Origin: a virus
Taxonomy: Duplodnaviria; Caudoviricetes
Length of the DNA: 24,562 bases
Strand: one strand, 5' to 3'
Virus record (IMG/VR): IMGVR_UViG_3300020045_001154
Location: 1 to 24,562 of that record
The notes beneath the pieces were generated by a model. The model worked only from the letters and a program-made list of their open reading frames with translations. It had not been told where the DNA came from and did no database searches. Positions 19,569-22,887 of this stretch are shown piece after piece. The stretch's first letter is position 1. Each line of letters starts with the position of its first letter. Position numbers and translations under genes: made by a program.

Positions 19569-19599
19569 CAAATTTACGTATTATTTTTTAATTAATCAA
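19569..19599 (-). promoter_or_regulatory. Bacteroidetes-type promoter for the terminase/tail operon
   Basis: TTG (19599-19597)-N20-TAAATTTG (19576-19569). Confidence 0.6.
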
Positions 19600-19931
19600 T
19601 AATTTATTTTAGAATCTACTAAAATACACTTATCGTTGTCTATCCATTCTTTAATTATTTTACCAACCTTTTGCTTACACATTCCTAATCTTTCGGAAAT
19701 ATTCCTATATGAATTATCTTTAGTGATTAGATACATTTGTATAACGCTTATTTTTATTTTGTCGTTTACTACTTGTTTTTTTTTCTTCTCGAAGTTTTTA
19801 ATTAGTTCGATATTTTTATCTGTGTATCTTTTTCCGAATATACCTAACTTCTTTTCTCTATCGTAAACGGTAAAATAATTTATTCCTGTTATTTCCGATA
19901 CTTCCATTCTCGATAAAAACTCACTACTCAT
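19596..19931 (-). CDS. Putative DNA-binding protein with two HTH-like segments
   Basis: LSRMEVSEITGINYFTVY and SYRNISERLGMCKQKVGKII. Confidence 0.6.
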   Translation of the reverse strand: MSSEFLSRMEVSEITGINYFTVYDREKKLGIFGKRYTDKNIELIKNFEKKKKQVVNDKIKISVIQMYLITKDNSYRNISERLGMCKQKVGKIIKEWIDNDKCILVDSKINY

Positions 19932-20362
19932 AACTTATAAACCACAAAATTAAAATCAAAGTTTGGCACACTTGCTGGATTACTATCGATAATCACGTCG
20001 AAACTATTTAGAGTCGCGTTCGTGTATGATAAGTGTCTTAACTTCCCACATAGTAAAATCACGTAGTTATTGTCGATTTGCGGAACTATAAACGTAACTC
20101 GGTATGTTGTGTTATTAATCTTTGTTGTAGTTGCTCCAAAGCTTTTTAAAAGCGTTCCAGTGTTATCGACTACACCCATGCAAATACTTTGGTATGGTGC
20201 CGTTGCTAATACTCCGTTTATATTGCTTTCAACTGTTCCTAATGTAAGGCTTCTTACACGAGTTGTTCCATTTACATCCAAAGTATTACTTGGTGTTGTA
20301 GTCCCGATTCCAACTTGGCTCATTGCGAAGATAGGGAATAGTAATATAATTAGTTTTTTCAT
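19928..20362 (-). CDS. Secreted protein with VGIGTTTP motif and fibre-tip-like C-terminal domain
   Basis: Signal peptide MKKLIILLFPIFAMS followed by Q, then VGIGTTTPSNTLDVNG and a beta-rich C-terminus (YRVTF...DNNYVILL...FNFVVY). Confidence 0.65.
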   Translation of the reverse strand: MKKLIILLFPIFAMSQVGIGTTTPSNTLDVNGTTRVRSLTLGTVESNINGVLATAPYQSICMGVVDNTGTLLKSFGATTTKINNTTYRVTFIVPQIDNNYVILLCGKLRHLSYTNATLNSFDVIIDSNPASVPNFDFNFVVYKL

Positions 20363-21067: not shown

Positions 21068-21679
21068 CTAATTTTTAAACAATTCCATTATTTCTTTTAC
21101 TTTTTCGTCACTACCTAAAATTGCGGTTAGTTGTTCTTCTTTGGTGGGTTCTAGTGGTTTGCAATAAGTCCAAGATACAAGTTGTTCATCATACCAAGCA
21201 ATAGTTTTAATTCCTCTTTTACCTATTACTTTTCTTTTGTGCCATCTTTCTTCGTTATCACTCACCAACATCATCACTCCATCGCTTAAAGTTGGTATTT
21301 CATCTTCTACAAATAAAGTAAATGCTTTTGGGTTCCAATCGTCTGAAAAATAACCTAACCCCCACATGTTTTTAGGGTCTAAAACAACTGTACCACTTGT
21401 TTCCGATTGACCTGCTAAAATAACAACCCCATCTTGTTGAATGTATTTATTTCCTTTTATTAATTTATCTTCATCTTCTACTAAATGAGCTTCTATTTGG
21501 TTAGCTGGGTACGCAAAACCATCTTCATCAAACTCAACTATACACCAATCTTCATTTTTATCATATTGCTTTATAGTTCCAATCTTACCAATATAATTAT
21601 CCATTTTTTGTAAGTACCATAATTTTTCAAACTTAAAGCCTTTTACTTTTTTTCCTATTAATCTCTCTGGGTTTCCCAT
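21068..21679 (-). CDS. Hypothetical protein
   Basis: 203 aa that appears to be several small beta-barrel-like modules. First gene behind leader element A. Confidence 0.6.
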   Translation of the reverse strand: MGNPERLIGKKVKGFKFEKLWYLQKMDNYIGKIGTIKQYDKNEDWCIVEFDEDGFAYPANQIEAHLVEDEDKLIKGNKYIQQDGVVILAGQSETSGTVVLDPKNMWGLGYFSDDWNPKAFTLFVEDEIPTLSDGVMMLVSDNEERWHKRKVIGKRGIKTIAWYDEQLVSWTYCKPLEPTKEEQLTAILGSDEKVKEIMELFKN

Positions 21680-21700
21680 AATGTTATTTTTTTTTAAATT

Positions 21701-21801
21701 AAAAAAGCCTTTTAATACTCACACATCTTGTACTTGTGCTTTCCTAAAAGGCTAATCGTTTATTTTTTCGTCCGATAGTACAAGTATCGTTTAATTGACA
21801 T
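21701..21801 (-). ncRNA. Structured leader / attenuator element A (kissing-loop terminator)
   Basis: Hairpin CGAUA-CUUGUAC-UAUCG (21789-21773). Terminator AGCCUUUUA...UAAAAGGCU+UUUUU (21753-21701) whose apical loop AGUACAAGA contains GUACAAG. Confidence 0.65.
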
Positions 21802-21805
21802 GAGG

Positions 21806-21835
21806 CAAACTTACAAATTAAAATTGAATTAACAA
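21806..21835 (-). promoter_or_regulatory. Bacteroidetes-type promoter for leader A
   Basis: TTG (21835-21833)-N19-TAAGTTTG (21813-21806). Confidence 0.7.
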
Positions 21836-22015
21836 CTGTTTTTGTGAATTATTTTCAAGATTATTAATATCACATATTACCACATCGTTAAATTTATTAT
21901 GCGATATGACTTTACTCAAAATAGGAATCAATAGTGTACAAGTAGCAATATTACCGTGCATCTTTTCAATTGTCATTAATTGACTCGTTATTTTATGTTT
22001 GTATATTTTGTTCAT
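21818..22015 (-). CDS. Hypothetical protein
   Basis: 65 aa ORF overlapping the 3' end of the HNH gene. Confidence 0.5.
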   Translation of the reverse strand: MNKIYKHKITSQLMTIEKMHGNIATCTLLIPILSKVISHNKFNDVVICDINNLENNSQKQLLIQF

Positions 22016-22535
22016 TTAAAATAATTTCTTTTAATCTTTTTTGATATGCTAAATGAGCATTATATTCAATATTAAAATCACCTAAATATTCTATTTTTTT
22101 ATTGTTTCTTATAGCTGCTCTCCATTTTTTTGTATTTTTATACCAAAATACACCGACGTAATTAGAACTATATTTTTTGCTTTTAAGGCTTGAATTTTGT
22201 CTGTTTGTTACTATTTCTAAATTTTTTAAATTATTATTTAGCTTATTTAAATCTACGTGATTAACAACTAATTTGTGACCGCAAGTAATATGATTTAAAA
22301 AACAAATAGAAACTAATTGATGCACATATCTTTTTTTTAATTTATTATCTTTATAAAGATTTACTGCAAAATATCCCTTACCAACTAAATGTTGTTTTAA
22401 AATTCTTTCTCTTATTGGTAAATTAGTTTTGTTAATTCTTAATTTAATTCTTTGTAAACTTTTTACCCTACCTAAATTACTTACTTGGTAATCTTCAAAA
22501 CCTATAATTGTTTTCCAAATTTCTATTTGTTCCAT
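21993..22535 (-). CDS. NUMOD4-HNH-AP2 homing endonuclease
   Basis: NUMOD4 (EIWKTIIGFEDYQVSNLGRVKS), HNH (VHQLV...VVNHVDLNKLNNNLKNLE...N) and AP2 (SNYVGVFW...KKWRAAI...YLGDF...AHLAY). Start set to ATG 22535. Confidence 0.9.
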   Translation of the reverse strand: MEQIEIWKTIIGFEDYQVSNLGRVKSLQRIKLRINKTNLPIRERILKQHLVGKGYFAVNLYKDNKLKKRYVHQLVSICFLNHITCGHKLVVNHVDLNKLNNNLKNLEIVTNRQNSSLKSKKYSSNYVGVFWYKNTKKWRAAIRNNKKIEYLGDFNIEYNAHLAYQKRLKEIILNEQNIQT

Positions 22536-22541
22536 AAACGT

Positions 22542-22621
22542 AAAAACCAGCAAATCAAAAGGTGGTCGTCTTTATCATTGCTGGAATTTTATAATGTTGT
22601 TAATTAGGCGACCACTCCTAT
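22542..22621 (-). ncRNA. Structured leader / attenuator element B (kissing-loop terminator)
   Basis: Hairpin UAGG-AGUGGUCG-CCUA (22620-22605). Terminator CCAGCAA...UUGCUGG+UUUUU (22584-22542) with apical loop ACGACCAC. Confidence 0.65.
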
Positions 22622-22625
22622 AAAA

Positions 22626-22656
22626 CAAAAGTATGAAATATTATTTAAATACGCAA
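22626..22656 (-). promoter_or_regulatory. Bacteroidetes-type promoter for leader B / HNH
   Basis: TTG (22656-22654)-N20-TACTTTTG (22633-22626). Confidence 0.7.
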
Positions 22657-22887
22657 CTATTTTTTATTTATTTTTTCGTAACAGTAAAGTATTGTTTTAT
22701 GAACCGCTAAATTAATTTCGTTTTGTGCTATTGCTTTATCAAATCTTTGTAATTTTCCGTTGTTGTCTATTTCAATATACCACTTGTTACGGTGGCTTAT
22801 CGGATAAACTTTCACCCCAGCTTTTATAATTTCGTAATTCTGATTAGAAACGTCTGGTAGGTTTGTTATTTTAGCTCTCTTACTCAT
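22657..22887 (-). CDS. Hypothetical protein
   Basis: 76 aa, coupled (ATGA overlap) to the methyltransferase gene. Confidence 0.55.
   Translation of the reverse strand: MSKRAKITNLPDVSNQNYEIIKAGVKVYPISHRNKWYIEIDNNGKLQRFDKAIAQNEINLAVHKTILYCYEKINKK

Follow-up and report, generated by a model that had tools for sequence, protein, structure and literature searches.

The virus contig IMGVR_UViG_3300020045_001154 (Caudoviricetes), whose whole analysed stretch of 24,562 nt is here called the window, raises the question of why two of its genes are preceded by leaders of the same build but without common sequence. Leaders A and B both consist of a promoter, a small 5' hairpin (P1), an A-rich or A/U-rich linker and a long interrupted hairpin with a U-tract behind it, and in both a 7-nt word in the loop of P1 is complementary to a word in the loop at the tip of the long hairpin. 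This loop-loop contact is called the kiss below, and its pair of words the code. The leaders represent a real, widespread and apparently uncharacterised class of leader RNAs with covarying loop-loop pairing and a terminator-like end, and they probably work as attenuators in which termination depends on the kiss.

All elements of A and B were found on the minus strand where the original prediction had placed them (Table 1), including linkers of 19 to 20 nt. An architecture finder (promoter, hairpin, complementary hairpin and U-tract), written after the finding had been seen, gave exactly two matches in the window, A and B, and a mean of 0.01 matches, never two, on 100 block-wise dinucleotide shuffles. 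The predicted starts are based on the position of the TAnnTTTG box at -12 to -5 (PMC9723704), and relative to them the first hairpin begins at +2 in B and at +13 in A. Three details had to be corrected. The loops were said to be exact 7-nt complements, which is right for the words but not for the loop sizes, as both B loops have 8 nt (one unpaired 5' base and seven paired) and the terminator loop of A has 9 nt. A U-tract just before the ATG is a feature of B, with its start codon 6 nt past the tract, but not of A, where the distance is 22 nt. The promoter called consensus has its TTG and box in both leaders, but the TTG at -33 is not conserved, being present in 26 of the 95 listed B copies. 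A GC-closed hairpin followed by U5 gives both leaders the features of an intrinsic terminator, and a simple terminator scanner misses them because the stem is long and interrupted. Plain folding z-scores of the leaders are only modest (-0.96 to -2.17), and the strong evidence for them is the covariation in homologs.

Homologs of B were searched with two patterns made only of long-hairpin parts and U4; neither loop, P1 nor the promoter was included. At least 102 distinct contexts were matched, at least 95 of them with a -7 box at the expected place. A perfect 7-nt Watson-Crick complement of the terminator loop was present in an upstream hairpin in 95/95 of the listed promoter-bearing copies, in 11 codes, while the remaining seven of the 102 listed contexts comprise six of unrelated sequence with 3-4 mismatches and one cut by the locus edge. 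In the alignment of 95 rows (92 distinct; the homologs are related, and counts and paired changes are not independent events), the four helices together are 99.2% paired. All 644 of 644 cells of the kiss are paired, with 82 two-sided changes at 5/7 pairs and no one-sided change, and slid controls gave 31-49% pairing. Two-sided changes were also found in 4/4 pairs of P1 (98.1% of cells paired), in 6/7 pairs of the lower stem and in 2/4 pairs of the upper stem. The linker measures 19-22 nt in 92/92 distinct homologs, the P1 core lies 4-6 nt past the box in 94/95 listed copies, and the first 8 nt after the stem contain 5-8 U in 95/95, although the search patterns themselves contained U4. On the coding strand, P1 and the lower stem include G-U pairs, which point to an RNA made from that strand; a DNA-level or opposite-strand structure was rejected on this ground. 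No helix other than the four showed repeated two-sided changes in the alignment, and the four are mutually compatible and all able to coexist. An extended duplex between the two hairpins of B fails, with one position unpaired in 75/92 sequences. In one B copy (L102:5289-5374) a pair of P1 is broken and no ORF follows within the stretch examined, but the 7-bp complement is intact.

Family A comprises five sequences with two codes (the window, L002, L006, L009 and L097), which share the promoter, P1, the GAAA/GAGUA internal loop and the U-tract. P1 is paired in 100% of cells, and a possible 3-bp GUC/GAC extension of it beneath an A-rich bulge in 93%. Three of the seven kiss pairs are changed on both sides between the two codes; the covariation of family A is real but thin. 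The promoter region is near-identical in L002 and L009. All four matches of a metagenome scan for family A were unrelated, as were two among five viral matches. The difference between A and B had been taken for natural covariation, which it is not in a strict sense, as the B covariance model has no match to A; loop-loop covariation is found within each family instead. A and B were further supposed to be mutually orthogonal. Cross-pairing is indeed absent, with +0.5 and -1.5 kcal/mol for the cross duplexes vs -6.7 and -10.5 for the cognate ones, but selection for orthogonality was not detected, since 2/55 within-genome pairs share a code vs 3.8 expected (P=0.25, on a small sample in which B is over-represented).

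The design extends well beyond these two families. A promoter-anchored search covered 43 genomes, namely 39 contigs (chosen mostly as B carriers), the window, P12002L, V181 and part of FCL-2. It gave 70 matches, duplicates included, out of 585 promoter-like sites that had a long hairpin, and on shuffles a mean of 1.3 and a maximum of 5. Duplicates and two doubtful matches (G164:13796, an antisense reading, and G178:30406, unclear) were taken out, as was G156:1478, which has no pure Watson-Crick word of at least 6 in the slice examined and a pairing that includes G-U; model matches were added. The curated set holds 84 elements, about two per sampled genome, which differ in sequence, internal loop and stem. 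No sequence common to different families was found within one genome. At least 5 U among the 8 nt after the stem occur in 25/29 non-B elements found without a U requirement (9% of linker 8-mers; one element skipped). In some elements a single-stranded 5' end takes the place of the hairpin loop in the pairing. In L240 (G168:20197, minus strand), L170 (G158:30577, plus strand) and L245 (G194:4064, plus strand), which are without a 5' hairpin, a pairing word of 8-9 nt starts at the predicted +1/+2; threading of the loop would require a free 5' end in such leaders, which could distinguish transcripts of their own promoter from upstream read-through. In the A-type leader at L002:5500-5570 about 46 additional nt separate P1 from the promoter, and P1 thus need not be 5'-terminal. 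An internal loop resembling that of A, which we take to be loop-E-like, recurs in the unrelated leaders L003:17697 (FCL-2) and L167:40354 (V181) and in the window at 21716-21743, with the orientation in A opposite to that in FCL-2 and V181.

An ATG-anchored search without a promoter requirement recovered promoter-bearing elements in hattifnatt9-1, P12002L, P12002S, phi19:3 (two), V181 (two) and FCL-2, and the design is present in cultured phages of Flavobacterium, Polaribacter and Cellulophaga. Two promoter-less matches in Riemerella phage RAP44 were treated as uncertain. The element was absent from Parabacteroides phage PM708P3, crAss phage cr112_1, Enterococcus phage Paulomi and Lactococcus phage phiQ1 (0 in 74, 169, 93 and 116 ORF starts), a small sample of four genomes, three of them slightly incomplete. 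For B, a scan of a genome collection gave nine pattern matches, of which four were real, all in contigs of metagenome-assembled genomes. The B covariance model matched 1/151 genomes of the seed's genus, the seed itself, which is a weak negative, with 29 candidates scored per genome. A blastn search of leader B against isolate phages gave short AT-rich chance matches only, and the B copy of hattifnatt had no match in plasmids.

Table 1. Elements of leaders A and B and the first gene behind each, in window coordinates
Feature	Position	Strand	Details	Basis
B promoter	22626..22656	-	TTG 22656-22654, N20, TAnnTTTG box 22633-22626; predicted start 22621	sequence
B 5' hairpin P1	22605..22620	-	4 bp, 8-nt loop; pairing word GUGGUCG 22615-22609; starts at predicted +2	
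B A/U-rich linker	22585..22604	-	20 nt	
B long hairpin	22547..22584	-	7-bp lower stem, UGAU/UGAU internal loop, 4-bp upper stem, loop with CGACCAC 22568-22562; -11.3 kcal/mol	
B U-tract	22542..22546	-	U5	sequence
NUMOD4-HNH-AP2 homing-type endonuclease	21993..22535	-	180 aa from ATG at 22535, first gene after B	
A promoter	21806..21835	-	TTG 21835-21833, N19, TAnnTTTG box 21813-21806; predicted start 21801	sequence
A 5' hairpin P1	21773-21789 within 21770..21799	-	5 bp, loop CUUGUAC 21784-21778	
A A-rich linker	21754..21772	-	19 nt; similar length in 5 homologs	
A long hairpin	21706..21753	-	10-bp lower stem, GAAA/GAGUA internal loop, 5-bp upper stem, loop with GUACAAG 21733-21727; -15.4 kcal/mol	
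A U-tract	21701..21705	-	U5; invariant in 5 homologs	
203-aa protein, no family assigned	21068..21679	-	first gene after A; no Pfam/PHROG match	

The internal loop of B is presumably of the tandem G-A type, and that of A is, we assume, loop-E or sarcin-ricin-like. The window belongs to a tailed phage whose main genes all lie on the minus strand, among them genes for helicase/primase, methylase, HNH endonuclease, terminase, portal, a Clp-type protease and capsid-like proteins. A terminase search found no close named relative. The gene preceding leader B has isolate relatives only in Flavobacterium phages (79/79 records). In the contigs of four wastewater sequencing runs 13-15% of words were present, and contigs of a public run join 21693 to 22022, which means that a variant without A exists.

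The genes behind the leaders are mainly nucleases and replication genes. The endonuclease after B is recognised by Pfam as NUMOD4 (1.4e-12), HNH_3 (5e-5) and AP2 (6.8e-5) and by PHROG as HNH (1.7e-30), and endonucleases (NUMOD4-HNH, GIY-YIG and endonuclease VII-like) follow 66 of the 95 listed B copies. Fourteen copies are followed by a 79-aa protein, three by helicases, three by primases, one by a methylase and eight by others or none. The commonest non-nuclease product, a conserved protein of 78-79 aa (L012:2551-2787 and 13 further loci), has no Pfam or PHROG match and is followed by an 80-aa protein. Genes headed by A differ between phages (YopX, a solenoid-repeat protein, unassigned genes); the 203-aa protein of the window has one relative, in L002, with 47% identity. 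Families other than B head replication initiators, primases, helicases, RNase H and small unassigned genes. A nuclease-specific guide or antitoxin RNA was rejected on account of the unrelated folds of the downstream proteins, and a ribozyme on account of the lack of nucleotides common across families.

Promoter, leader and endonuclease move as one insertion, present or absent between conserved genes. In hattifnatt9-1 they are inserted between gp040 and an ssb-like gene, and a 121-nt stretch there is identical in 34 isolate records; in filifjonk9-1 the cassette is absent and the same two genes are joined by 10 nt. The B cassette is likewise missing after the shared gene in L001, a relative of the window. 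At one and the same position FCL-2 carries another replication-initiator module than V181, and both modules come with a leader and a code of their own, which resembles plasmid replication controls. Cassettes also lie upstream of genes that the phage needs (ssb, helicase, terminase), and read-through must therefore occur.

What the leader does is proposed as follows. It would be a structured RNA, complete in itself, at a phage promoter of the host sigma-A type, working as a transcription attenuator. The leader is likely transcribed from the predicted promoter and terminated at the U-tract. It is also likely that the kiss forms in cis during RNA synthesis and influences termination, because a stem of 15-20 bp puts the loop outside the RNA polymerase, given the footprint of the enzyme, when termination is decided. 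As no alternative helix was found, the effect of the kiss must be kinetic or mechanical. Opposition to closure by strain or topology, not by an alternative helix, stands at about an even chance against promotion of it. In favour of opposition are the near-perfect stems of some variants, which need no help to fold, the needed genes downstream, and the linker, whose length is near that which spans the folded helices; a crude chain model gave a strain of 2-5 kcal/mol, more if flanking pairs form. In the full version of the proposal, which we hold tentatively and somewhat short of an even chance, the predicted kiss would hold the terminator open on a newly entered genome and permit read-through, and the accumulating short terminated RNA of 80-100 nt would later compete in trans by binding nascent P1, whereupon the terminator would shut. 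This would amount to negative feedback or to a sensing of copy number. If the fully zipped product is strained, its loops could become free for such pairing, and the pairing of the released RNA with nascent P1 in trans is the least certain step. The leader's own RNA would be the only regulator that matches every code automatically and without a protein, and feedback by leader RNA has precedents in IsrK and P4 CI (PMC4825925). Doubtful at present, and put forward as a guess, is a whole class of one-piece feedback switches in which a leader of less than 110 nt would be at once target, antiterminator and inhibitor, the kiss in cis jamming the terminator mechanically and the product sensing genome copy number in trans. 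If it were true, each mobile nuclease or replication module would carry a protein-free, code-addressed pulse generator.

Several observations weigh against this proposal. The missing alternative covarying helix and the failed extended duplex mean that there is no classical antiterminator, and helices that coexist fit a stable fold or a terminator built by the kiss equally well. The upper hairpin of B has 0.0 kcal/mol alone and does not fold, which favours the opposite sign of the effect. The terminated RNA could kiss itself, leaving no free loop. Four of the 29 non-B elements have fewer than 5 U directly after the stem, one of them through a mis-assigned stem end. No selection for differing codes within a genome is detectable, and in family B the loops are less variable than the stems (entropy 0.49 vs 0.88 in P1 and 0.80 in the lower stem).

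The explanation that best survives beside it, possible although we would not expect it, is that the kiss builds the terminator. By stabilising the weak upper hairpin it would let the stem zip in time, the endonuclease and replication genes being kept low, and read-through would rise upon interference with the kiss, be it through temperature, slow folding, a protein of phage or host, or positive feedback by the short RNA in trans. The upper hairpin of B is unfolded alone and about -10 kcal/mol comes from the kiss, all four helices are compatible, and most listed B copies head endonucleases, which in T4 are kept low by hairpins and terminators (PMC2988022); in the corrinoid riboswitch, too, the L5-L13 kiss stabilises P13 and promotes the ribosome-binding site (RBS) hairpin or the terminator (PMC10327014). 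However, near-perfect stems of 14-17 bp in several variants (L102:440, G186:3350, G189:11527) fold unaided, and the kiss is therefore not needed to build the terminator there. A simple short terminator would also dampen expression without a second hairpin, and replication initiators and primases are required early.

Translational control, in which the hairpin near the start codon occludes an initiation region free of a Shine-Dalgarno sequence and the kiss sets its openness, is improbable as the main explanation, although compatible with termination. The first ATG is located 9-12 nt after the stem in 72/95 listed B copies, and the hairpin of T4 seg43(25) just upstream of the RBS is an endonuclease precedent (PMC2988022); in A and many non-B variants, however, about 20-30 nt separate the ATG from the stem, and the U-tract is retained in most variants. 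Rather unlikely as well is that the RNA matters as a product and not as a switch, being either a compact small RNA that resists nucleases or a 5' cap that stabilises the mRNA, and having a target of its own such as a host protein or RNA polymerase, while the endonucleases merely use a strong promoter. A P1 that begins at the predicted +1/+2, structured internal loops conserved within families and the coexistence of all helices would suit such a product, but families in one genome lack common sequence, nearly every copy immediately precedes a start codon, and a free-standing family was not seen. Lysogenic immunity is unlikely as the main role, and immunity or a self/non-self barcode of P4 CI or P1 C4 type, the barcode and the likeness to P4 CI having been part of the original prediction, is very improbable altogether, although the leader is self-complementary with a predicted short terminated product and codes differ in 53/55 within-genome pairs, since a third copy of the code within 300 nt occurs at 1/95 listed B copies vs 6/950 in the control, a tyrosine integrase in 1/22 near-complete carriers and 3/28 of all records (recombinases of other types were not searched for), the model search in the seed's genus was weakly negative, orthogonality is at chance level, and loops are not hypervariable, with two codes accounting for 60/95 listed B copies; the lack of a third site, the rarity of integrase and the genus result together mean that the P4 CI layout and lysogenic immunity do not apply.

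The leaders can be set beside several known systems. P4 CI RNA (seqA/seqB/seqC) and IsrK are alike in that a short phage-leader RNA pairs with transcripts of its own locus, the action in trans being a proposal for the leaders described here. In IsrK of Gifsy-1 the terminated leader acts in trans on its own read-through mRNA and activates translation (PMC4825925). P4 CI differs by three complementary sites, where the leaders have two and a loop-loop contact of 7-9 bp with the terminator tip; unlike in P4 CI and P1 C4, the carriers are mostly without integrase and no C4-type match was found in Rfam. A kissing contact controls expression of the replication initiator in pT181 (PMC3753616), and in ColIb-P9 a cis pseudoknot of repZ and the trans-acting Inc RNA compete at one site (titles cited in PMC10724649). 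The leaders differ from both by having no conserved antisense promoter (TAnnTTTG on the opposite strand within 150 nt downstream in 8/94) and no alternative antiterminator helix, with both partners in one sense RNA of less than 110 nt. The mutually exclusive terminator and antiterminator helices of pT181-type attenuators and riboswitch platforms were not found. In the corrinoid riboswitch the L5-L13 contact in cis controls a terminator or RBS hairpin and can do so with either sign (PMC10327014), whereas here the kissed loop is the terminator's own tip, there is no aptamer, Rfam match or competing helix, and the downstream genes are nucleases and replication genes, not B12-related. Homing endonuclease genes of the T4 family likewise have RNA structure just upstream, in the form of simple hairpins that limit expression and are relieved by a late promoter (PMC2988022), but the leaders add their own sigma-A-type promoter and the kiss, and they head non-nuclease genes too.

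Novelty with regard to Rfam was borne out. Covariance models of Rfam 15 at the gathering score gave no match in the window and none in 16 homolog loci, and by E-value the best match in 21600-22720 had E of about 10. One catalogue entry is close. DNAVirus_8377 of Fremin et al. 2023 has a length of 105 nt, 88 sequences that are mostly from freshwater, a predicted terminator and eight Bacteroidetes hosts. It sits upstream of HNH_3, NUMOD4, AP2 and GIY-YIG genes (PMC10690425) and, compared by its metadata, is probably family B or a sister of it as an anonymous entry; the words 'kissing', 'HNH' and 'Bacteroid' do not occur in the main text of that paper. No published description of a kissing-loop terminator leader was found in the full-text literature searched, most subscription papers lying outside it. 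The timing of early and replication genes by the host polymerase and the restraint of endonucleases in phages of Flavobacteriaceae are, to our knowledge, little studied, and no paper on either was found in the same literature.

The leaders would be a case of leader attenuation of unusual, testable design, and the contact within them likely decides the transcription of downstream genes for DNA cutting and DNA replication. With either sign, the gating of a terminator through a kiss on its own tip, no alternative helix being involved, would be a new control of intrinsic termination. The design is directly testable, as it occurs in cultured phages with culturable hosts (hattifnatt9-1 among the 34 identical records, P12002L/S and phi19:3), and the natural codes would supply Bacteroidota, for which few compact RNA parts exist, with a ready library of them.

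Some minor features of the window lie around the leaders. The 5' loop word of A is repeated at 21936-21942 (minus strand), within the 3' portion of the B transcript and roughly 100 nt upstream of the A promoter. It could pair with the terminator loop of A on read-through RNA, and it is probably there by chance, because L002 and L009 differ in their upstream sequence. On the plus strand, a sigma-70-type promoter at 21795-21824 (11/12 consensus) and a TTG..TAnnTTTG match at 21970-22001 both lie antisense to the B transcript at its end. Besides those of A and B there is one more full TTG-N-TAnnTTTG promoter on the minus strand, at 19570-19599, which precedes small genes leading to the terminase and is without a kissing leader. 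The early-region protein of 144 aa encoded at 19928-20362 (minus strand) has a signal-peptide-like start, a 'VGIGT' motif, an assignment to phrog_13535 and a weak tail-protein match.
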